Below the pieces are notes generated by a model that saw only the letters and a list, made by a program, of their open reading frames with translations, was not told the origin of the DNA and made no database searches. Both the position numbers and the translations under genes were made by a program. A stretch of 64,000 nucleotides of DNA, from the NCBI GenBank assembly GCA_964016885.1, contig OZ024741.1:113274001-113338000 (forward strand), read 5' to 3'. The stretch's first letter is position 1, and each line of letters opens with the position of its first letter. Below are positions 1 through 61,923 of this stretch, piece after piece. This stretch comes from Eledone cirrhosa. Taxonomy: Eukaryota.

Positions 1-2173
1 TTGCATCTATATCTTTTGATTCACCCGATTTCAATGCAGACTCAAGCTTCAAGCAATAACTCATTATATTTTCTGTTGTCTTATTTTGCAGTCCCTTCAA
101 ATCATAAAGGAATCCAAAAAGTTCACTGATTAAATTCATCTGCTCAAATCTTTCTTTAATAGATTGAATTGTTGTGTCCAATATAGTAAAATAAAACTCT
201 ATCTTGAACTTTTCCTTCGGATCCTGAATTGGTTCATCCATTCTTTCATATTGAAACCGTCTTTTTTTCTTCTAATTATTTGTTTTTCATTTTCGAATTC
301 CGATGGAACTTCAAGTTCTCTTGCAATCTCTGAAGCATCAACCAAATTTCTTTGAAATGCTTCATCTGTTCTGCTATTTTCAAGAAATGATTTTGTTTGT
401 TTTAACTGCTGAAGTGCAGCCTGAATATCAAAGTCTTTTTCTTGCAGTAATTTACTTGTTATATTAATTTCAAATAAAATATTGTACCAAACAAGGCAAG
501 CAATAAATTTATAATTTGATATAACATTTACTAGGGCTTCAGCATCACATTGTGTTGTATTACCAGATGATCCAGTGAGATTAGTATTATCAGCTAGTTC
601 AGTTAGTGCATCATACACAGGGCCAAGCTGGTAACGCAGAGGCTTCAATGCGTCAATACGACTCTCCCATCGTGTATCACTCAAACGTTTTACTGTTAGA
701 GTTGGCACATGTTTCATCAAAACTTCCCAGTGATAGGTTGCGCTTGAAAAAAACACATAAATACGTTGCAATATATCAAAGAAACGAGTGGCCTCTAGAC
801 ATTTTGCTGCATCATTCACAACTAAATTTAGTGAATGGCTACTGCAAGGAACAAAGAAGGCACCAGGATTAAGGTCTAGAATTCTTTTTTGAACTCCACT
901 ATGTTTGCCTTTCATGTTGCTCCTGTTATCATAGCCTTGTCCACGTATATTTACCATAGGTAACCCGAGTTTTTCCAATTTTTGTAGAAGACATTCAGAC
1001 ATAAATGCACCAGTAGTTTCCTTCAGTTTAATAAATGTAAAAAAATGTTCACGAATCTTGACTTCATCCATTCGCATATCAATGAATCTTATTACCAATG
1101 TCATTTGTTCTGTGTGACTTACATCTGGAGTACAGTCCAGTATAATTGAAAAATATTTAGCTGATTGACAGGACTTTACTATTTCATGTATAATAGCATT
1201 TGACACTAGCTGTATCAGTTCTTTTTGCATTTATTTACCAAGGTAATGTATATGGGTTTCATTATCTCTAATTCTTCTCAAGTGTTCTTTCATTATTGGA
1301 TCAAACAGAGCAAGATATTCTACAAACTTAAGAAAGTTTCCATTTCCAGCAGTAAACAGTTTATCAACAGATCCTCTGAAGGCTAAATTTTGTCCACCAA
1401 GTGTCCGAACTAAAGCTAATAAACGTTCTAATATATGTCTCCAATATTGTTCTTCTTGTTTTATTAGACGAGCATTTTCCTCATCAATTGTTGCATTTCT
1501 GTTTAATCGCAAATCCAATTCTTTCCAGTTATTAAAGTTTTCAAAATGTTCAGTTGATTTTTCATGAGATGATAGTATAGCTGACATATTTTTCCAATCT
1601 GCAGATCCATGTATTGCAAGAGTTGATAGACTAGCTATTTTTTTTACTAAACAATTTACAGCAAAAGCAGAACACACAGTCTTGTAATACTGAATATTGT
1701 AACCAATTACGATTAATTTCTTCACCATTAATTAACTTTCTAGTATAATGAATGTTTGAAAGTTTTCTCCTATTCTTATCTTTAGGAAACTTTATATTTT
1801 TAACTTGTTCCGGTCCATGTTGAACTAGTAGCCTTCTAATATTATCATTACACTTTTTTTGCCAGGTGGCAGGATCACTGTAACTTAGATTTAAAACTTC
1901 ATTTTCGATTGATCCATCATCCTTACACTCTGTTTCTGAATGTTCATGTCTTTCATCAAAGATATCTTCATTTCCTGGCTGTATGATACTTACATCATAG
2001 AATTCATCAATAGAAACAGAAATAGAGTTATTTTCATCATCATCATCACCTTCAGTCTCTCTCCCTTTGCAAAGGTATTTTAGAAATGATCCTTTTTGCT
2101 TTGCAAGTTCCCTTTCTTTTTCAAGTTTGTGTTTGCGATACTGAGCACCAGATGGTCGTTTACTGTCTGCCAT
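1..2173 (-). pseudogene. Disrupted hAT transposase (TTF-type Zn finger, DUF4371-like region, DDE core)
   Basis: ORFs 1631-2242, 1231-1728 and 199-1230 join into one protein: MADSKRPSGAQYRK, RNWLQYS..VFCFCCKLF, NLAFRGS..GNGNFL, FSIILDCTPDVSHTEQ, RGQGYDN, CSSHSLNL, SDTRWESR. It has a frameshift in the T-run near 1640, an in-frame TAA at 1231-1233 and a frameshift near 260, after which it continues (EKFKIEFYFTILD..ERFEQ..FGFLYD) off the window edge. Confidence 0.92.
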
Positions 2174-2386
2174 GCTAAAATAATAATAGTTTAGTGCAAT
2201 ATGATATACTAAAAAATAACTTGTCCTTATTCCTATCCTCATCCCTAAATGAATTATTTATATCATCTGAAAAAAAGAATTATTTTTTAACAAATTATTA
2301 TTAAGCCATATTAATTTAAATTATATTATTTTATATATATTAAATAAAAATTTTAATATGGTAAATTATAATAAAAAAAAATATAG

Positions 2387-11895: not shown

Positions 11896-12460
11896 AACAC
11901 TGCCTCAGTATGACAAAATACCATTCAGTTCTACACAGTCTCAGTATTACTAGATACCATACCATTCAGTTCTACACTGTTCCGGCATTATTAGATATAA
12001 TACCATTCAGTTCTACACAGTCTCAGTATTACGAGATACCATACCATTCAGTTCTACACTGTTCCGGCATTATTAAATATAATACCATTCAGTTCTACAC
12101 AGTCTCAGTATTACGAGATACCATACCATTCAGTTCTACACTGTTCCGGCATTATTAAATATAATACCATTCAGTTCTACACAGTCTCAGTATTACGAGA
12201 TACCATACCATTCAGTTCTACACTGTTCCGGCATTATTAAATATAATACCATTCAGTTCTACACAGTCTCAGTATTACGAGATACCATACCATTCAGTTC
12301 TACACTGTTCCGGCATTATTAGATATAATACCATTTAGTTCTACACAGTCTCAGTATTACGAGATACCATACCATTCAGTTCTACACTGTTCCGGCATTA
12401 TTAGATATAATACCATTTAGTTCTACACTCTCTCTGTATTACAACACACGATATCATTTA
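11896..12460. repeat. 41-bp minisatellite, left block, as alternating A/B 82-bp higher-order dimers
   Basis: TACCATTCAGTTCTACACAGTCTCAGTATTACGAGATACCA alternates with TACCATTCAGTTCTACACTGTTCCGGCATTATTAGATATAA. Confidence 0.95.
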
Positions 12461-13537: not shown

Positions 13538-14664
13538 TTTAGTTCTACACTGCCTCAGTATAATTAGATACCATACCATTTAGTTCTATACTGTCTCAGT
13601 ATTAGGAGATACTATACCATTTAGTTCTACACTGTCTCAGTATTACAACATACCATACTATTTAGTTGTACACTCTCTCTGTATTACAACATACCATATC
13701 ATTTAGATCTACACTGTTTCAGTATTACTAGATACTATACCATTTAGTTCTACATTGTCTCAGTATTACTAGATACCATACCATTTAGTTCTACATTGTC
13801 TCAGTATTACAACATACCATATCATTTAGTTCTACACTGTCTCAGTATTACTAGATACCATACCATTTAATTCTATACTGTTTCAGTATTACTAGATACC
13901 ATACCATTTAGTTCTATACTATCTCAGTATTACTAGATACCAAATCATTTAGTTCTACACTGTCTCAGTATTACTAGATACCATACCATTTAGTTCTATA
14001 CTATCTCAGTATTACTAGATACTATACCATTTAGTTCTATATTGTCTCAGTATTACAACATACCATATCATTTAGTTCTACACTGTCTCAGTATTACTAG
14101 ATACCATACCATTTAGTTCTATACTGTCTCAGTATTACTAGATACCATACCATTTAGTTCTATACTGTCTCAGTATTACTAGATACCATACCATTTAGTT
14201 CTATACTGTCTCAGTATTACTAGATACCATACCATTTAGTTCTATACTGTCTCAGTATTACTAGATACCATACCATTTAGTTCTATACTATCTCAGTATT
14301 ACTAGATACCATACCATTTAGTTCTACACTGTCTCAGTATTACTAGATACCATACCATTTAGTTCTATACTGTCTCAGTATTACTAGATACCATACCATT
14401 TAGTTCTATACTGTCTCAGTATTACTAGATACCATACCATTTAGTTCTATACTGTCTCAGTATTACTAGATACCATACCATTTAGTTCTATACTATCTCA
14501 GTATTACTAGATACCATACCATTTAGTTCTACACTGTCTCAGTATTACTAGATACCATACCATTTAGTTCTATACTGTCTCAGTATTACTAGATACCATA
14601 CCATTTAGTTCTATACTGTCTCAGTATTACTAGATACCATACCATTTAGTTCTACACTGTCTCA
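13538..14664. repeat. 41-bp minisatellite, right block, mostly monomeric (some 39-bp variants)
   Basis: ATACCATACCATTTAGTTCTATACTGTCTCAGTATTACTAG; period 41 (14101 to 14142). Confidence 0.97.
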
Positions 14665-16034: not shown

Positions 16035-17772
16035 CATCGTGTAACAAAAAAATGTTTCTTCTCTGTTCCTGGCTTGTAATCACATTTTTGTGTTGCTTAG
16101 GTCCCAAATAAATTTTTAAAAAGTGCTATTAAACAGTTAAAAGTTTGGGTTTGTAAAAATTCTAAGCTATTCACTAGAATTATTTGTATGCTGGATTTTA
16201 CGTTGTATGTAAGTTTAATTTGCTTATGTTAAATGATTTTTTTATATATGTTTCAGGTTAAATTAAAATGATAAAATAAAGAGTAATACCTAAAGAAAAT
16301 TATAAAAGTGCAATAAAATATAAAATTGTTAAAAAGTGGATTAAAGAGATTTATTGATACTGGATTTTCGCACCCTGAATAAAGGGTAAGTTGAGTTTTA
16401 AGCATTCGTCTCCAGGATGAAGCAGTGGAACTTGGTCAAGGAGGAAGTGCAGGTGACAAGTCAGAGAAGTCGACACAAACCTTTCTCAGGCTTTTACACT
16501 CTTAGGGATGGCCTCTGCTTCTGCAATGACATGCCTGGACTGTTTGACGTTATTGGGGTCCCGTTTGTGCCCAAGGAGTGGCGGCTATTTATAGACAGCT
16601 CCACCACAAGTTTGAAGGCTGTCCTCCTCCAAAATGGAAACAAGTTCCCGACACTGCCCCTAGCTCATTCAGTCTGCCTGAAGGAAGATTACTACAGTGT
16701 GAAGGTCCTCTTGGAAGCTCTGCAATACAACCAGTACAATTGGGAAATCATTGGAGACTTCAAGATGGTGGCTTTCCTGCTTGGACTCCAAGGAGGCTTT
16801 ATAAAATTCCAATGCTTCCTCTGCCTTTGGGACAGCAGAGCCACCTCTGACCACTACAAAAGAAAGAACTGGGAGCAGCGAACAGAATTTGTAGTTGGGA
16901 CCCGGAATGTCATGTGGGAGCCACTGGTTGATCCCAGGATTGTGCTCATGCCGCCACTGCACACTAAGTTGGGGTTGATGAAGCAGTTTGTGAAGGCTCT
17001 CAACCAAGAATCAACCGCTTTTAAGTACCTTCTTGAGTTCTTCCCCAAGTTATCTGAGGCCAAAATCAAAAGTGGAATTTTTGTTGGACCTCAGATAAAG
17101 AAGGTGTTTGAGTCTACCGAGTTCTCCAATAAGCTCAATAGGATTGAGAGAACAGCATGGATCTATTTCAAGGCAGTTGTTAAGGGCTTCCTGGGCAACT
17201 ACAGAGCTGAAAACTACCAGCAACTGGTGCAGGAGCTGATAAAGGCTTTTGGCGCCATGGGATGCAGGATGTCGCTTAAACTCCATATGCTGAACTCTCA
17301 CCTGGAAAAATTCAAGGAAATATGGGCGCCTACTCAGAAGAACAAGGCGAACGATTCCACCAAGATGTGAAAGAGATAGAGCGGAGGTACCAGGGCCACT
17401 GCAATGAAAAAATGATGGGGGACTATATCTGGGGGCTAGTGCAGGAATGTGACCTGGACTACAACCGCAAATCCAGGAAATCCAGTCATTTCTGACGTGT
17501 ATAAGTTGCTTTATAAGTGCTATTTGTTTTTACTTGTTTGCTTTTGATAAGCTTGTGTAATAAAATAAATATATACTCTGTTGATTTAATTATATGAACT
17601 GATAAATTTTAAAAAAATGTGTTTTTCTTGAAAAATATGAAAATTTTGAAATATCAAACTTTTGACCAGAAACCCAAACTTCTCATTAAATAATAGTTTT
17701 TTAATAATAATGGGATATAACAAACCAGGAACTAATACTTAGAACTGTGGAACAAAAATAAGTTACACGGTG
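16035..17772 (+). mobile_element. Chapaev3-like (CMC superfamily) DNA transposon, probably internally deleted
   Basis: Ends CATCGTGTAAC (16035) and GTTACACGGTG (17772). TTA on both flanks (16032-16034, 17773-17775) fits a TWA TSD. Removing it rejoins an RTE frame ELREKLI|IRGIRYCEQERRL. Confidence 0.85.
16417..17495 (+). pseudogene. Chapaev3-type transposase core with one frameshift near 17320
   Basis: WRLFIDSS..SLKAVLL, GDFKMVAFLLGLQGG..CFLCLWDSRA, PPLHTKLGLMKQFVKAL, GIFVGPQI, MSLKLHMLNSH; after the shift NMGAYSEEQGERFHQD..ERRYQG..MMGDYIW..SHF* (TGA 17493-17495). The family name is from motif recall. Confidence 0.85.
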
Positions 17773-25650: not shown

Positions 25651-27570
25651 ATGGTCAATTTAATCTCTAAGTGCCAACGTTATATAATCTTGAAAAACCA
25701 CTTTTAATGTAAACCCACATATAAACTAATTTATGAAGAATGAAGGTAAAATTAGTAAAGCTATTTTAGGTTTCATTAATTAAAAGATTAGACAAAAACC
25801 ACCATTTTACTGTTATGGAATAACATCATGTTTGTAATCAAGTGGTTTAGTAGCATAGAGGCTAAACATAATTACAAATTTACTCAGTTTGATGATTTTA
25901 TCCCTCCATCAAAGACTTTGGCTTTTCAATAAGCTTAATGTTTCATTGTTCCTTTACTGATATTAATGACATTTATATTAATGTTGTAATATAGGCAACA
26001 AATTAACAGAGTCAAAGATGATGCTGATGATGAATAAGGTACTGAATTAGAGAAATTATTTATTTCGGTTTATTGTATTCTGAATTCAAATTCCATTGAG
26101 GTCAACTTTACCATTCACCTTTTCAGGGTCGATAAATAAAGTACTAGTCCAGGAGTAATTAATTGGTGGAATTGTTAAAGAGTTGGATGGTGTACTTTTT
26201 TGCATCTGATCCAGCTCTATGTGCTTTGATTTCATGTCCTGCCTCCTTCGAGTAGTAGTTGTAACTGTCAGAGAATATTAGCTGGCAATAGATGTGGCAA
26301 ATCATTGCAATAAGGCATCCATTAGAAAAAGCTATGATAAAATCAAGACTTTATCAAGGCGTCATCATCCCAAAGGAAGAATTAAAGATTGCTTGAAACT
26401 CATTACTTTTCCATGATAATTTCTTTTGGATTAAATGCAATAGCAGCAAGCTTTTTCAGTGTGGCTATGTATAGTTTCAATGGACCAGAGTTTTGTAAGG
26501 TTATTAGAATTTATATATTAGATTCCCGTGATAAAATTATTCCCTATTTAGAATTAAGTCTGATCATATCACTGTTCCTTAATGTAAATCTTTTGATAAT
26601 TGAGTCTAAGGATTTGAATCAGTACTGAATTTGAAGTTGTTAATTTCTTGGATATCACTTTAAATTAAATTATATATATATGATTCTCTGGCAGAAAACC
26701 TGATTAAAGTACCCTATATTTAAACAAACTAACTAATCATCCAATAATCTTTAAAAAAAAACTAGTCGGCAACATTAGTAGATGGGTTTCACAATTTCTT
26801 TTGATCAAGAGTCCTCAAAAAAGTTTGTTATTACACTAATGCTTTTGAAGAAAACTATTTTGGCAATAAAATACAATATTTTCAGAACACCAACAGTATG
26901 CACACAAATATGAATAGGGACAGAAAAACTACCTTTGTATTTTAAAGTTCTAGATCAAATACACAGATATTTTTCCTGTTTTTTACATGGATATAAAAAA
27001 ATATTGTAATGAAAACACAGAACATGTTAGTTGTAACTGCACGGGAGATCTCAATACTTTATTATCAAAACTCAACAAAAGTAATCATATAAATTCAAGC
27101 CCAATTACAAATAGGCACGCACATTGATCTCTGGACAATTATAATTTCCTTTCTTGTTAATTGATGGTGCTTTGATAAAACATATATATATCCCAAGCCA
27201 AAGTTTCTTCATCAGATAATATAGACAGAAACTATATTGGTTTTACAACCGATTCATTTAAAGGCTGACACACAACATATATTTCCACAATCTAGAATAC
27301 AGAAACACTACATTGGCTAAATATATCTGAAACCTAAAGATTTTCATTGAAATTAAAACCTTATATATCAATTGATTCAATTGTTGCCAAATCTCACTAG
27401 CAGTGACTTCTGCTTGTAGCATTACATACAAACACATACTAGTAATCTGTTCTAAATAAATCTTTCCTAAAATACATATTTTAAATTATTTTAAAATTCT
27501 GTTTTGCTTTCATTCGATTTTTAAAATGAAATTTCATCAAATTATTATTTTCTTTTTTACCGATCCCTAG

Positions 27571-27844
27571 GTATTTGGCTACAACACATTTTGAACCAGC
27601 CACTGCCCGGTTGGCATTTCCTTGTTTTGATGAACCAGCTAAGAAAGCCAATTTCACACTTTTTATGGTGAGAGAGCAACGCCACAACACTCTGTTTAAC
27701 ATGCCTTTAAAAGCAACCACATCTTACATTCACGGACTTTTCTTGGATTCATTTGGAACTACACCAAAAATGAGTACCTACTTAGTCTCATTTGTCGTAT
27801 CTGACTTTGTATCAGTCAGTGGGGAGACCAAAAATGGGATTAAG
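27571..27844 (+). CDS. Internal coding exon of an M1-family zinc aminopeptidase (ERAP1/LNPEP/aminopeptidase N-like, N-terminal domain)
   Basis: Pyrimidine tract plus CCCTAG acceptor ending 27570; AAG|GTAAGT donor at 27845. Encodes YLATTHFEPATARLAFPCFDEPAKKANF..NMPL..TPKMSTYLVSFVVSDF..TKNGIK, the ARxAFPCFDEP and MSTYL signatures. Confidence 0.96.
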
Positions 27845-28570: not shown

Positions 28571-28628
28571 ATACCTGATGATATCACCGGATTCATACGG
28601 AACCCGGTCATTGAAATGATCATAGTAT
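28571..28628 (+). ncRNA. Type-I hammerhead ribozyme motif, core intact
   Basis: ATAC-CTGATGA-T-ATCACCGGATTC(ATACG)GAACCCGGTCAT-T-GAA-ATGATCAT-A-GTAT: stem I 4 bp, stem II 10/12 pairs, palindromic stem III, AUA cleavage triplet. Confidence 0.75.
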
Positions 28629-53161: not shown

Positions 53162-53434
53162 TATAAAATTAAAAAACGATTGTCATATTCCATAAATATA
53201 TCAAACATTAACAGGAGATAATTTGTAAAAGGATGTAAGAATATATAATTCAAAATGGCGGCATATGTGAATTGTAAATACCTGAATTTCAGTAATTATT
53301 CATATGAATAATTACTGAAATTCAGGTATTAACAATTGAATTATGCCGCCATTTCGAATTATATATTCTTACATCCTTTTACAAATTATCTCCTGCTAAT
53401 GATTGATATATTTATGTGTATGTCAATGGTTTTT

Positions 53435-53954: not shown

Positions 53955-55809
53955 ATCATCATCATCATCATCATCACCGTTTTACGTCCGTTCTTGCAGG
54001 CTAGCAGGGGTTAGACGGGTTGTCCTGTTGTGAGCAGTGTCTGGTCGGCTGACCATGCCTTGCCCATACAGGAACGGATTTGGCTTGATTTCTACAGCTG
54101 GATGCCCTTCCTAACACCAACCTCATTTACAGTGAGTGTTGGGTACTTTTTCGTGGCGCCTACACGTCCACTTTACAGTGTGGGCTGGGTGCTTTTTTGC
54201 TGTGGCACCTCCACGACCACCTTGCAGTGGGAGGGTGTGGGGGCATATTGTCTATATGCTTCAGCTTGTACCCATGGGAGGTCGGGTACTCTGTATTACT
54301 GCATGACGCCAGAAGTCACGGTCGTGTGTCATCGACTTCTAGTGCTCTGCACCTTTTTATGCAGCTGTCATCCTTCATACGCATCACATGTCCATACCAA
54401 TGCATCCGCCTCTCCTGCACACAGCATTTGATTCCTCTTATGCTCAGTCTCTCTCTCAATTCATTTATGCTTTGTCGTTCGCGTATATTACTATTACACA
54501 TCCATCGGAGCATGCAGGCTTCATTTCTCTCTAATCTATGTAACATTGCTGTTCGGATACACGCATCATACAGTCTGCCTTTCATTTTGAGGGAGAAGCC
54601 TTTTGCATCTAGCAGTGGTAGTAGTTCCCTGAACTTCTTCCATCCCGTTCTTACCCAAGTTATTGTACTTTCTGAACACCCACCTCCACTGCTAATTCGG
54701 TCACCTAGGTAGCAGAAGCTGTCTCTGTCTCTACAGAGCCCTCCCAGAGATTGGTGGTACTTGTTTCCTGTGGCTGTTTGCTGCTTGCTGTCCCAGTACA
54801 GCTGCTCCATGTGAAGCCTACATTCTTAATTAAGCTTCCTGAGATCCCGCTACATCTCTTGTGTACTCATAGTTTGAATTTGGGGCAGAGAATAGAGTTC
54901 CTACCTACACCTTTCCTACATACTGAGCAAGGCCATTTCCCTGAGGGGATCTGGGTTCTGTTTTCTCGTCTACTTACAAGAACCTTAGTCTTTGTCATGT
55001 TGACTTTGAGACCCTTTCTTTCTAGTCCCTGCTTCCAAGTTTGGAATTTCTCTCTAGTTCTACCATAGATTCAGCTATAAGTGCGAGGTCATCAACATAC
55101 AGGAGTTCCCATGGGCATCCGGTCTTAAACTCCTCTGTTATTGCCTGCAGGACTATGATGAACAGGAGAGGGCTAAGAACAGAGCCCTGGTGGACCCCAA
55201 CCTGTACGCTAAATTCCTTGCTATACTCATTGCTAATCCTAACTTTGCTGACTGCTCCCCTATACATGGCTTGTACAGCTTTCACAAGCCATTCATCTAC
55301 TCCTAGTTTTCTAAGAGCCCACCAGATTACAGCACGTGGAACTCTGTCAAAGGCTTTCTCGAGATCGACGAATGCCAGGTAGAGTGACTTACTTTTAGCT
55401 AGGTACTTTTCCTGTAACTGCCTCACAAGGAAGAGGGCATCAGTGGTGCCTCTTCCTGGTACAAACCCAATTTGCATCTCATCTAGTTTCACCCGGTCCC
55501 TAATCAACTGTGCTATAACTCTTTCTGTTACTTTCATGACCTGGTCCATCAGCTTTATACCTCTATAATTTCCTCTATCGAGTGCATCACCTTTACCTTT
55601 GTAGCAATTGACAATGATGCTACTGCACCAATCTTTTGGTATGACACCTTCTAGTATTACCTGGTTAACAATACGTGTGGTTATAGTGTGACCTACAGAC
55701 CCAGATGCCTTCAGCCTCACGGCAGCTATTCCCCATCTTCATATCTTTGATTGCCTTACTTACTACGCTGCTGCTGACTTGTACTGCTGGCCCCTCTATA
55801 GGGTCTACT
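53955..55809 (-). mobile_element. 5'-truncated RTE-clade LINE (RT, PHD-like finger, 3' UTR, (TGA)n tail)
   Basis: ORF 55022-55720 (YKGKGD..NYRGIKL, QIGFVPGRGTTDA, AFVDLEKAFDRV, GVHQGSVLSPLLF, LYVDD) and ORF 54316-54810 (FCYLG..GWKKFREL..WYGHVMR), with frameshifts and a stop. Confidence 0.95.
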
Positions 55810-56748
55810 TGTTTGGAAAGAGAGATATATATTTTAATTTTAATTATATCTCATATAAAATAATACAACTGGCTTTCCACAAAATACATATAGTTAGCAC
55901 CCCAAACATATAATTGGGATTATACTAAGGTATATCCTAATGTTTGTTGAGTGAGATGGTAGCCAGTCAGAGTAAAGCTTAAGGCTTTCTCTGTTAATGT
56001 ATTGAATATTTTACTCTTGATTTGGCCAGAGATAAATTTTTCCAGATACCTTTTAAGCATAACTTTCTGTATTTACTATTGTTATGAAATATTGATTGTT
56101 ATTTTGCTATCATATCTCTGTTTTTAGCCTAAGAAAATATCTATATGCGTGTATAATTAATACATGCATACATTTATTTTTTTTAAATTTAATTGAGTTC
56201 TTAACACACAGGGTTAAAATTGTTGAAAAAATTTAATTCACCCACGTGTATATTATTTTACTTTCTTGTGTTTCGCGATTGCCTCCCTTTTCCGCTTTGT
56301 GACGCTGTGAAATTCCTCATTCTGAGACTGCTGGAATTTCAAATTTGGCGGTCATTATGATGCGTGGAGGGATAACTAGCTGACACAAAAAATGACATCG
56401 GTAAGGAATTTTTTATTATATCAATGTTTGACGGGCATCCACTGATGATTTATAAGTGCCCACCTGCATATGTTCTTACAGAAAAATATGTTGGCTTTTA
56501 CATAACCCGGATACATTCTCCCAACTTGTAAAAAAAACTTATAATGAAACAATTGTTTGGAAAGAGAGATATATATTTTAATTTTAATTATATCTCATAT
56601 AAAATAATACAACTGGCTTTCCACAAAATACATATAGTTAGCACCCCAAACATATAATTGGGATTATACTAAGGTATATCCTAATGTTTGTTGAGTGAGA
56701 TGGTAGCCAGTCAGAGTAAAGCTTAAGGCTTTCTCTGTTAATGTATTG
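55810..56748 (+). mobile_element. Non-coding hammerhead-bearing tandem element (retrozyme/PLE-pLTR-like), 744-bp period
   Basis: 55810-56004 is repeated at 56554-56748 (offset 744). HHR at 56438-56561. Ends in (TA)n. No ORF of 60 aa or more in the track. Confidence 0.8.
56438..56561 (+). ncRNA. Type-I hammerhead ribozyme motif with very long stem II, core intact
   Basis: TCCA-CTGATGA-T-TTATAAGT..(~79 nt)..ACTTATAA-T-GAA-ACAATTGT-T-TGGA; predicted cleavage after GUU at 56557. Confidence 0.72.
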
Positions 56749-56761
56749 TATATATATATAT

Positions 56762-57179
56762 ATATTTGACAAAAGTAAGAAAATGACTTCACTTGGAGTT
56801 GGTATTTATTTTATAACAATTTCATTTTACAATTTTATAATTTTGCTATGTAGATCTAAGTGCTTTGGTAACTTCGTTGGAAAGATTTTTTTTTAAATCC
56901 TGGTTAATTTTCTGGAGAACTTCTTTGCATTTGTCAGTGGCAATTGTCAAACTGATCTAATGTAATAAACCAACACATTAGAACTTTAGGTTAGTTTGAC
57001 AATCACCATAAAAGCAAAGAATGCAAAGAAGTTCTCCAGAAAGTTAACCAGAATTTAAAAAAAAAAGAATTTATTAACAAAGGACTTATTTGATCTACAT
57101 AGTAAAATTATAAAATCAAATTGTTATAGAATATGTACCAACCACAAGTGAAATTATTCTTTTCCTTTTTTCAAATATA
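56762..57179. repeat. Imperfect fold-back element (~190-bp arms, ~40-bp spacer); single-arm relative at 60160-60346
   Basis: TGGTTAATTTTCTGGAGAACTTCTTTGCAT pairs with ATGCAAAGAAGTTCTCCAGAAAGTTAACCA; ends TATATTTGA / TCAAATATA. Confidence 0.85.
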
Positions 57180-57197
57180 CCTAACTATACCAAAGAT

Positions 57198-58719: not shown

Positions 58720-59135
58720 ATTGTTTCAGTATAAGTTTTTTACAAGTTGGGAGAATGTATCCGGGTTATGTAAAAGCCAACATATTTTTCTGTAAGAACA
58801 TATGCAGGTGGGTACTTATCAGTGGATGCCCGTCAAACATTGATATAATAAAAAATTCCTTACCGATGTCATTTTTTGTGTCAGCTAATCATCCCTCCAC
58901 GCATCATAATGACCGCCAAATTTGAAATTCTAGCAGTCTCAGAATGAGGAATTTCACAGCGTCACAAAGCGGAAAAGGGAGGCAATCGCGAAACACAAGA
59001 AAGTAAAATAATATACACGTGGGTGAATTAAATTTTTTCAACAATTTTAACCCTGCGTGTTAAGAACTCAATTAAATCTAAAAAAATTAAATGTATGCAT
59101 GTATTAATTATACACGCATATAGATATTTTCTTAG
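58720..59135 (-). mobile_element. Inverted partial copy of the 744-bp HHR unit (matches 56129-56553); core has a 7-bp deletion
   Basis: Near-identical reverse complement; reads CCACTGATAAGT where the intact copy has CCACTGATGATTTATAAGT, and stops at GAAACAAT. Confidence 0.93.
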
Positions 59136-60846: not shown

Positions 60847-61890
60847 AATGAGTAGGACCCCAGTAGGTCCTACTCGTTCCTATTACCCACTCTATTACCC
60901 TAAGTATTGACTACTTTGGTGCGTTATGGTCCACTTGGTTCCTTACCACATTTCCTTCATTATCTAGCTCCTATTCCCGTAGTAGAGCACTTTCTGACCC
61001 TACCACGCCATATCCAGACTTTTCCGCTAAGCTCAATTTCTTTCACCCGCACCATGCGAAAACACAACATTGACTTCTCCACCAAGAACATCCCAGTTCC
61101 ACCGAAAAAACTTTACCTTCGGATGCTCACGCAAAAAATCGACCTCTTTGCGAAAAGACTTAGATGGAGAACTTTTTTCTACGACAGATATTGCGACAAT
61201 CAGGACTTCGGTACCAAGGAGAGATTCGGATTTAATACCTACAAATCTCCCCCTCCGAACCCTATGCTCTCACCCTTCGAGAATGACCTTTTCCAACTGG
61301 TCAAGAACATTAAATTCAAACCCAGACACAACCGATTCCTACAAAAACTCTGTAGCAACTTAACAGAGTATGATAACACCAATGACATCATGGTGCACTC
61401 GGATAAAACTGGTAACCTCTACTTCATCAACCCCGACAGATACCACACACTGATCAGGAGCAGCCTAAACTCCACCTATGAAAAGGCTAACCACTCTTGC
61501 ATCGAGGACATAAATCGAGTTGGACAACAAATTACCTCCAGCCTCGGGGTCGCCGACCGCACGGAACCCCTAGACCCACGGACACCCTACTTCATACTGA
61601 AGGACCACAAATCCGATTTCGACCGTAAACCTTCTATCAGGCTTATAAACCCAACGAAGTCCGACATAGGGAGAATCAGCAAAAATATCCTAGACTGCGT
61701 TATACCAAAAGTTAAGCAACACGCCAGACTTAGCCTATGGGTCAACACCCAGGAAGTTATCTCATGGTTCAGCAATATGGAGGACAAATGAAGAAGGGGT
61801 CCTACTCGTTCCTATTACCCACTCTACTACCCTAAGTATTGAGTACTTTGGTGCGTTATGGTCCACTTGGTTCCTTACCACATTTCCTTC

Positions 61891-61894
<4 letters not shown>
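60842..61894 (+). mobile_element. Naiad-type Penelope-like retroelement, partial, inserted in (TA)n
   Basis: ~97-bp direct repeats (60866-60963, 61798-61894) flank the ORF; 18-bp terminal inversion at 60842-60859; (TA)n on both sides. Confidence 0.85.
61054..61791 (+). CDS. N-terminal ~245 aa of a Naiad/Penelope-like reverse transcriptase ORF, truncated before the catalytic motifs
   Basis: FSTKNIP, KRLRWRTFF, FGFNT..PP..L.PFENDL, SDKTGNLY, YFILKDHK, RLINPTKSDIGRISK, W.NT.EVI.WF. The PLE DKT/DKG motif is present; the frame is uninterrupted. Confidence 0.85.
   Translation: MRKHNIDFSTKNIPVPPKKLYLRMLTQKIDLFAKRLRWRTFFYDRYCDNQDFGTKERFGFNTYKSPPPNPMLSPFENDLFQLVKNIKFKPRHNRFLQKLCSNLTEYDNTNDIMVHSDKTGNLYFINPDRYHTLIRSSLNSTYEKANHSCIEDINRVGQQITSSLGVADRTEPLDPRTPYFILKDHKSDFDRKPSIRLINPTKSDIGRISKNILDCVIPKVKQHARLSLWVNTQEVISWFSNMEDK

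Positions 61895-61923
<29 letters not shown>

Follow-up and report, generated by a model that had tools for sequence, protein, structure and literature searches.

Retrozymes and related elements

Animal non-LTR retrozymes are non-coding, low-GC tandem units with one type I hammerhead ribozyme; they lack LTR, PBS and PPT, have a weak palindromic stem III, give a self-paired predicted circle and coexist with Penelope-like elements, PLEs (PMC7229834; bioRxiv 10.64898/2026.07.22.740005). Mobilisation by PLEs from RNA circles was proposed, not shown, by Cervera and de la Pena (2020, PMC7229834), and in the preprint of Li, Clavereau and Pollet (2026, bioRxiv 10.64898/2026.07.22.740005) the mechanism remains open; one of nine retrozyme dimers was cleaved in this Xenopus work.

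The window analysed here, 64,000 nt of the Eledone cirrhosa genome, harbors a copy of a family that is alike in all of these respects. By the features examined, the family is a new member of the animal non-LTR retrozymes, with cleavage and circles as predictions from its sequence. The U.U mismatch at the base of stem II is shared with the hammerhead of the axolotl HHR_Amex2 retrozyme. The unit length lies inside the 51-972 bp of Li et al. (bioRxiv 10.64898/2026.07.22.740005), a variant of 989-996 nt being slightly above, and the units are larger than the 150-450-nt invertebrate retrozyme units with shown circles. In contrast to the long arrays of animal retrozymes, the family consists mostly of dispersed, 5'-truncated, sub-unit insertions in (TA)n. 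It also differs from them in a 79-nt structured insert in stem II and in that no homologous coding pLTR was found for it, and it is known here from DNA alone.

Hydra-clade PLEs with hammerhead-bearing pLTRs (Craig et al. 2021, PMC8557442; Cervera and de la Pena 2014, PMC4209133) resemble the family in their partial tandems, (TA)n targets, hammerhead proportions and fixed 3' end past a hammerhead. Unlike these, the unit has no ORF, has few 5' inversions, carries a tail of approximately 190 nt compared with their 30-40 nt, and is not similar in its DNA to any of the Hydra-type families examined. Non-autonomous PLEs of the MRC1 type in Chlamydomonas are likewise non-coding, pLTR-forming and often head-to-tail; their 3' ends are similar to those of their autonomous partners (PMC8557442), whereas no partner was found for the unit. 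Most Chlamys elements are described as being without canonical hammerheads (PMC8557442). Naiad PLEs share the (TA)n preference but are unlike the family in their N-terminal endonuclease and the absence of canonical hammerheads, although a split hammerhead half-core, with a spacer of 35-50 nt, is present in some Naiads of cephalopods (PMC8557442).

Our literature searches gave no paper on octopus or cephalopod retrozymes; Repbase or Dfam may hold the family as an unnamed repeat, and the supplements of PMC7229834 and bioRxiv 10.64898/2026.07.22.740005 may contain related repeats. Six words of 11-13 nt from the unit are absent from the PMC8557442 supplement, in which line breaks could hide a word, and the term ribozyme has no occurrence in PMC13282606.

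The insertion and its surroundings

The features of the insertion and its neighbours are listed in Table 1. The exact direct repeat is 196 nt long (55809-56004 and 56553-56748); an earlier note on this DNA, made from the sequence alone, gave the offset of 744 correctly and a length, 195 bp, one base short. It also recognised that the element has no ORF, the longest stop-free stretch in six frames over 939 nt being 57 codons, and that it ends in the (TA)n that follows at 56749-56765. ARAGORN found no tRNA head.

Table 1. Coordinates of features within the 64,000-nt window
Feature	Position	Strand	Remarks
LINE reverse-transcriptase fragment, 5'-broken; flank outside the element	55022..55811	-	RVT_1, E 8e-26
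Whole insertion	55809..56748	+	1.26 units of a 744-nt non-coding head-to-tail repeat
Direct repeat, first copy	55809..56004	+	Upstream hammerhead represented by its last bases only
Non-coding unit body	56005..56437	+	36-78% per 40-nt bin against three divergent subfamilies
Type I hammerhead motif	56438..56561	+	Sequence, genome pattern counts and covariation; cut predicted after 56557
Two-hairpin domain inside stem II, 79 nt	56458..56536	+	Compensatory changes in the first hairpin
Tail, predicted cut to fixed 3' end	56558..56748	+	Best-conserved part of the unit, 71-93% per bin
Predicted three-way junction, likely recognition or priming element	56604..56749	+	Fold z -4.1, 0/200 shuffles
(TA)n, 3' junction and likely target	56749..56765	+	Sequence; family pattern
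Second family copy, partial	58720..59135	-	96% identical; core with 7-nt deletion; tail missing
Internally deleted Hydra-type PLE, candidate kind of helper	60866..61898	+	In (TA)n; not a sequence relative

In the first repeat copy the site equivalent to the predicted cut lies after 55813, and the copy begins 4-5 nt upstream of it. A start near the cleavage site, as noted earlier, is thus right to within these 4-5 nt. The flanking LINE reaches 55811, and TTG at 55809-55811 is common to LINE and element; the 5' junction of the element therefore lies at 55809-55812, 2-5 nt before the equivalent cut and not at it. The usual continuation of the LINE beyond this point was seen as loose ends in contigs of three sequencing runs from one sample, which also showed variants of the family and gave no information on RNA ends. 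A search of sequencing runs listed no RNA run containing the unit, which speaks neither for nor against its expression. From the upstream ribozyme the window copy retains just TTGTT^TGGA, so it holds one whole hammerhead, not two, and the term hammerhead-delimited overstates the case. We rejected the 5' end of this copy as evidence for cleavage, since 2-5 nt from before the site are kept and a broken LINE lies directly next to it.

With 40 of 3,812 candidates scored, the nearest other copies are 97-98% identical to the window copy. The partial copy on the opposite strand is located 2 kb away and has LINE-like sequence in place of the tail.

Exons of an M1 aminopeptidase gene lie on either side of the insertion, which has the same orientation as the gene. 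One exon is found in the window at 27569-27844 (+), and the GAMEN and WFGN exons are located approximately 174 and 200 kb beyond the window end. As the GAMEN/HEXXH exon is approximately 210 kb past the exon ending at 27844, the element is likely intronic, within a very long intron of this gene.

Several other features were observed in the window. An inverted-repeat, MITE-like element (56751-56837 and 57103-57189) comes straight after the (TA)n, a near-perfect palindrome of 226 nt is found at 53191-53416, and 41-bp minisatellite arrays at 11917-12442 and 13538-14664 flank a LINE reverse-transcriptase fragment. A possible short hammerhead-like motif, ATAC CTGATGA ... GAAA ... GTAT, is located at 28571-28628 (+). 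The long frames at 199-2257 (-) and 16402-17370 (+) resemble DNA-transposon proteins, a hAT-like one and one of another kind.

A multicopy head-to-tail family

Searches with two 3'-end motifs gave 2,848 and 504 copies in the genome, with none for the controls. The copies are dispersed and non-coding, with one type I hammerhead per unit, and distant subfamilies are approximately 68% identical in the unit body. Complete units are 689-815 nt long, plus a variant of 989-996 nt that carries an internal duplication, and complete non-coding units were found in each subfamily having tandem copies. At seven loci, a unit variant of 989-1,009 nt, made by an internal duplication of approximately 260 nt, was seen to be spreading as a subfamily of its own.

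Head-to-tail arrays reach 2.3 units. Two or more complete hammerheads are thus present in the family (6 of 74 insertions in the first sample are long enough), whereas the window copy has one. No LTR, PBS or PPT was found; the direct repeat is a partial tandem and the 5' ends are variable. Neither a PLE protein match in the units of five subfamilies nor coding sequence in any unit copy compared was detected. The proposal of a non-autonomous element with other genomic copies in tandem arrangement has therefore been borne out: the element is non-autonomous, multicopy, head-to-tail and hammerhead-bearing.

The hammerhead motif and its fold

The hammerhead that the earlier note placed at 56438-56561 is confirmed. 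In brief, stem I has 4 bp (TCCA 56438-41 and TGGA 56558-61), the core consists of CTGATGA (56442-48) and GAAA (56546-49), and stem II has 8 bp (TTATAAGT at 56450-57 and ACTTATAA at 56537-44) enclosing the 79-nt insert. Positions 10.1 and 11.1 are T.T (56449/56545), i.e. U.U in the RNA. Stem III is the palindromic ACAAUUGU (C-AATT-G), position 17 is U, and GTT^ stands at the predicted cut.

Rfam did not detect the hammerhead, neither in the whole window nor in 55700-56900, and the short-spacer form of the window hammerhead has a single match in the genome; this form of hammerhead escapes both Rfam and short-spacer descriptors. A pattern with a spacer of 90-115 nt gave at least 2,223 intact cores in the 3.0 Gb genome and none for the reversed control. 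These counts, together with covariation outside the positions fixed by the pattern, show that the motif is not a chance occurrence.

Among 108 distinct cores, positions 10.1/11.1 are T.T or G-C, N17 is T, A or C, and the stem III palindrome is CAATTG, CGATCG or CGGCCG. The stem III loop (AATT, GATC or GGCC) was palindromic in all 27 diverse copies aligned. Across these 27 copies 94% of the cells of the full structure are paired, compared with 37-48% in slid controls, and the covariation score is 0.189 against 0.120, a value not reached in any of 500 shuffles, which ignore relatedness. Pairs with double changes numbered eight, which is not above shuffles (65/500). Since stem I and the core were fixed by the search pattern, it is the palindrome and the inserted hairpin that are informative. 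As judged from the aligned copies, the predicted ribozyme fold, including the 79-nt insert in stem II, is kept by compensatory changes across subfamilies that are 68-98% alike, and the hammerhead of the family appears to be under selection.

The minimum-energy fold of the window copy contains a rival hairpin, GGGCA/UGCCC, and gives stem II a probability of 0.03. In three other copies stems I and II are present in the minimum-energy fold. With one complete hammerhead and a rival hairpin, the window copy is unlikely to release alone the RNA of approximately 744 nt that the earlier note ascribed to it.

The U.U/CAATTG/GUU signature is found in 7,004 short hammerheads in this genome, some adjoining PLE coding sequence, and its recurrence there makes it a local style and not a sign of decay. 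Many of these short hammerheads were observed in head-to-head pairs, ending 36 or approximately 105 nt after the cut in (TA)n.

Insertion ends

The ends were read at 190 of the 3,352 end-motif matches (about 6%). Sample 1 comprises 90 of the first 100 listed matches, ten having been omitted as loci already fetched, several of them multi-unit; four overlapping loci were removed as duplicates. Sample 2 comprises the first 100 listed matches of the second end motif, mostly from the G-C/C17 subfamily without ATATAT.

A fixed 3' end approximately 190 nt after the predicted cut was found in 25 of 29 insertions retrieved by BLAST and in 18 of 20 loci chosen by their hammerhead (for diversity or spacing), independently of the end. 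End-motif matches were terminal in 165 of 190 cases (74 of 90 in sample 1, 91 in sample 2), and the other 25 all continue into the unit's own sequence. The terminal insertions of sample 1 have a median length of 395 nt and 15 of the 74 exceed one unit; 142 of all 165 are shorter than one unit. (TA)4 is found directly 3' of 70 of 74 insertions in sample 1 and 85 of 91 in sample 2, and directly 5' of 64 of 74 in sample 1.

By prediction the tail folds into a three-way junction. Of its 42 predicted pairs, 8 show compensatory changes, and its closing stem ends at the insertion end.

The run-on copies and complete units bear on whether the unit is the pLTR, or the 3' end, of a coding PLE that the sampling has missed. 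The PLE-type proportions of the hammerhead (4-bp stem I, 8-bp stem II, palindromic stem III; PMC4209133) would agree with this, as would a reading of 190 among 3,352 matches. Against it, 25 of 25 run-on copies enter the unit itself, complete non-coding units of 689-815 and 989-996 nt occur in every subfamily with tandem copies, and in no copy examined was the unit merely the pLTR of a coding PLE. Wide hammerhead spacings, considered as possible coding elements, were traced to local duplications with unrelated LINEs. We give very little credence to such a missed element. At one locus an apparent hammerhead running into a PLE ORF proved to be two separate insertions.

The 5' ends are scattered, with an excess at 0-15 nt after the cut (23 of 165 overall). 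In sample 1, 14 of 74 ends lie at 0..+15, which is 8x background (p 2e-8) and 5.5x other TA-run sites (p 5e-5). For sample 2 the prediction was written beforehand; 9 of 91 ends fall there (3.2x, p 0.003; against TA sites p 0.03). In all these p values each insertion counts as independent. The enrichment of ends at the cleavage site that the earlier note proposed to look for is present as a 5' excess just after the cut, whereas the constant insertion end is the one approximately 190 nt past the cut, not the cut itself.

The excess 5' ends are mostly at +7 to +13 and not at 0, about eight of those in sample 1 sit on ATATAT microhomology, and the excess is weaker, not stronger, in the subfamily with the canonical G-C/C17 ribozyme. 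The excess could stem from TA microhomology and a structural block to reverse transcription, at stem I or the first tail hairpin, with a hammerhead in the window's subfamily that is catalytically negligible. The position of the cluster fits this, as do the U17, the U.U mismatch and the rival hairpin of the window copy. We find it improbable, however: the same signature is carried by the 7,004 short hammerheads, some beside PLE coding sequence, the core is retained as its flanks diverge, three other copies hold stems I and II in their minimum-energy fold, and the excess replicates in a subfamily without ATATAT.

Penelope-like elements as candidate helpers

The insertion pattern of the family is Penelope-like, with partial tandems, a fixed 3' end, 5' truncation and a microsatellite target. 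The ends of the copies suggest likely insertion by an enzyme of the Penelope type, which would use a circle or chain of RNA and start at a single fixed, folded site.

A PLE is located 4 kb downstream in the window (Table 1); it was observed to have a 103-nt direct repeat with (TA)n on both sides, a mini-element with a partial-tandem layout like that of the unit. Its family is very young, with many intact frames of 784 codons, and includes a tandem array, 99.9% identical, with a period of 3,531 nt. Intact relatives have a C-terminal GIY-YIG and the motifs RWR, DKT, CNCPDRSIC (CxCX5C), CNLC and CKH. Section 11 of PMC8557442 gives the (TA)n preference of Hydra and its signature, which combines an RWK-like motif, DKT and a CxCX5C linker with CxxC and CxH in a C-terminal EN, and its supplement includes an octopus member of the Hydra clade. 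On these motifs we assign the PLE to Hydra. Naiad, suggested earlier for the PLE fragments nearby, was rejected, since that clade has an N-terminal GIY-YIG and DKA whereas the relatives have a C-terminal GIY-YIG and DKT. With 3.5 kb its unit is longer than Hydra elements generally are, under 3 kb (PMC8557442). Pfam and PDB searches gave nothing for the PLE ORF.

The young Hydra-type PLE has a variant hammerhead-like motif approximately 100 nt before its own fixed end, followed by a tail and (TA)n, a layout shared with the unit, and the tails of other coding PLE families here are 36 or approximately 105 nt long and end in (TA)n. In this variant motif (C1 near 437.2037 Mb) U3/A8 replace C3/G8; its stem II loop is long, its stem III has 5 bp, and standard CUGANGA descriptors would miss it.

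No DNA similarity was detected between the unit and the neighbouring PLE. A search for a coding partner in the young Hydra-type array gave a local score of 49 against a shuffle maximum of 48, 30 short-hammerhead loci gave no BLAST match to the unit, and a covariance model of the tail run on 39 sources gave family copies and one weak AT-rich match of 31.5 bits. No ORF with RT and GIY-YIG was found next to the end motif in the 190 matches read (first 22-40 nt; about 6% of matches), nor 3' similarity of the unit to an autonomous family among the PLE families sampled. As no partner with the unit's tail was found, PLE mobilisation rests on the insertion pattern and not on homology.

A head-to-head inverted partner was seen for only one insertion of the first sample. 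PLEs often have such partners, and this scarcity counts against PLE mobilisation. Spread by another enzyme, such as a LINE that targets microsatellites, or by duplication at the DNA level would account for the missing sequence link to a PLE and for the LINE fragment next to the window copy. The insertions have no poly(A) or LINE-like 3' tail, though; in their partial tandems, their tail beyond the hammerhead and their flanking (TA)n they agree with the Hydra-type PLEs found in this genome, and dispersed copies sharing one fixed end do not fit satellite expansion. We therefore consider spread by such means quite improbable.

Circle, multimer or linear template

Passes over the cut site read through it in 133 of 156 cases (62 of 76 in sample 1, 71 of 80 in sample 2). 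Read-through requires RNA that is continuous over the site, which may be a ligated circle, an uncleaved multimer or the product of a template jump, and the pattern is compatible with an RNA template that is either circular or multimeric.

Adjacent units were compared in 27 multi-unit insertions; the subfamily allele is common to both in 630 of 664 cells, where 382 would be expected. Nine differences between the units of an insertion recur in the same direction and 16 pairs run in opposite directions, which shows no inherited upstream/downstream pattern. The identity within insertions, 0.976, equals the identity to the best other insertion, 0.976, so the circle is not singled out over a homogeneous tandem source, which fits the shared alleles as well. 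Predicted circular monomers of five subfamilies have lower folding energies than their shuffled versions (z -3.8 to -6.7, with 12 shuffles for each).

The same counts may be explained by PLE-type priming on a linear template, either uncleaved tandem read-through or monomers joined by template jumping. No circle would be necessary, and the ribozyme would cut a minority of the RNAs only. The read-through of 133 in 156 passes fits uncleaved RNA, the 142 of 165 insertions below one unit agree with it, and minimal hammerheads of the PLE type are weak cleavers in vitro (PMC4209133). Linear copying would, however, shorten the family in each round, whereas whole units and arrays of up to 2.3 units persist over approximately 30% divergence, and inherited differences between upstream and downstream units are not seen. 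A family that makes mostly sub-unit copies would need a means to regenerate loci with two hammerheads. We hold a linear template to be unlikely, though by no means far-fetched, and lean by a little towards the template being a circle.

Proposed mechanism and significance

We consider it probable that the window copy is a recent copy of an animal non-LTR retrozyme, mobilised in trans by a PLE into (TA)n from a circle of unit RNA made by the predicted hammerhead ribozyme. In brief, a locus holding two whole hammerheads would be transcribed, and the two ribozymes would pair via the palindromic stem III and cut slowly, giving a monomer of 690-1,000 nt that a host ligase would close. Lunse et al. 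(2017) have reportedly worked on dimer cleavage by PLE hammerheads. The PLE endonuclease would then nick (TA)n, the 3' end of which would prime on the AU-rich stretch immediately 3' of the conserved junction, approximately 190 nt after the cut. Reverse transcription would proceed back around the template and stop at variable points, often in TA-like microhomology; on unligated monomers a stop near the cut would be expected.

More tentatively, we propose that the copies record, in the genome, how a Hydra-type PLE carried out target-primed reverse transcription on a ribozyme-made circle, with priming fixed by the three-way junction. We would sooner expect part of this fuller account to need revision than all of it to stand. 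If it is true, the elaborated domain in stem II would adjust a slow hammerhead in a way that lets circles survive, and the family would be a ready, protein-free substrate for studying how PLEs recognise their template and why they insert as partial tandems.

As this kind of element is already known, what is gained is detail on the mechanism and a substrate that can be tested, not a new system. The family offers footprints that can be counted: priming at a single point behind a conserved fold, copying that continues through the ribozyme site, and an excess of ends just past that site, seen in both samples.
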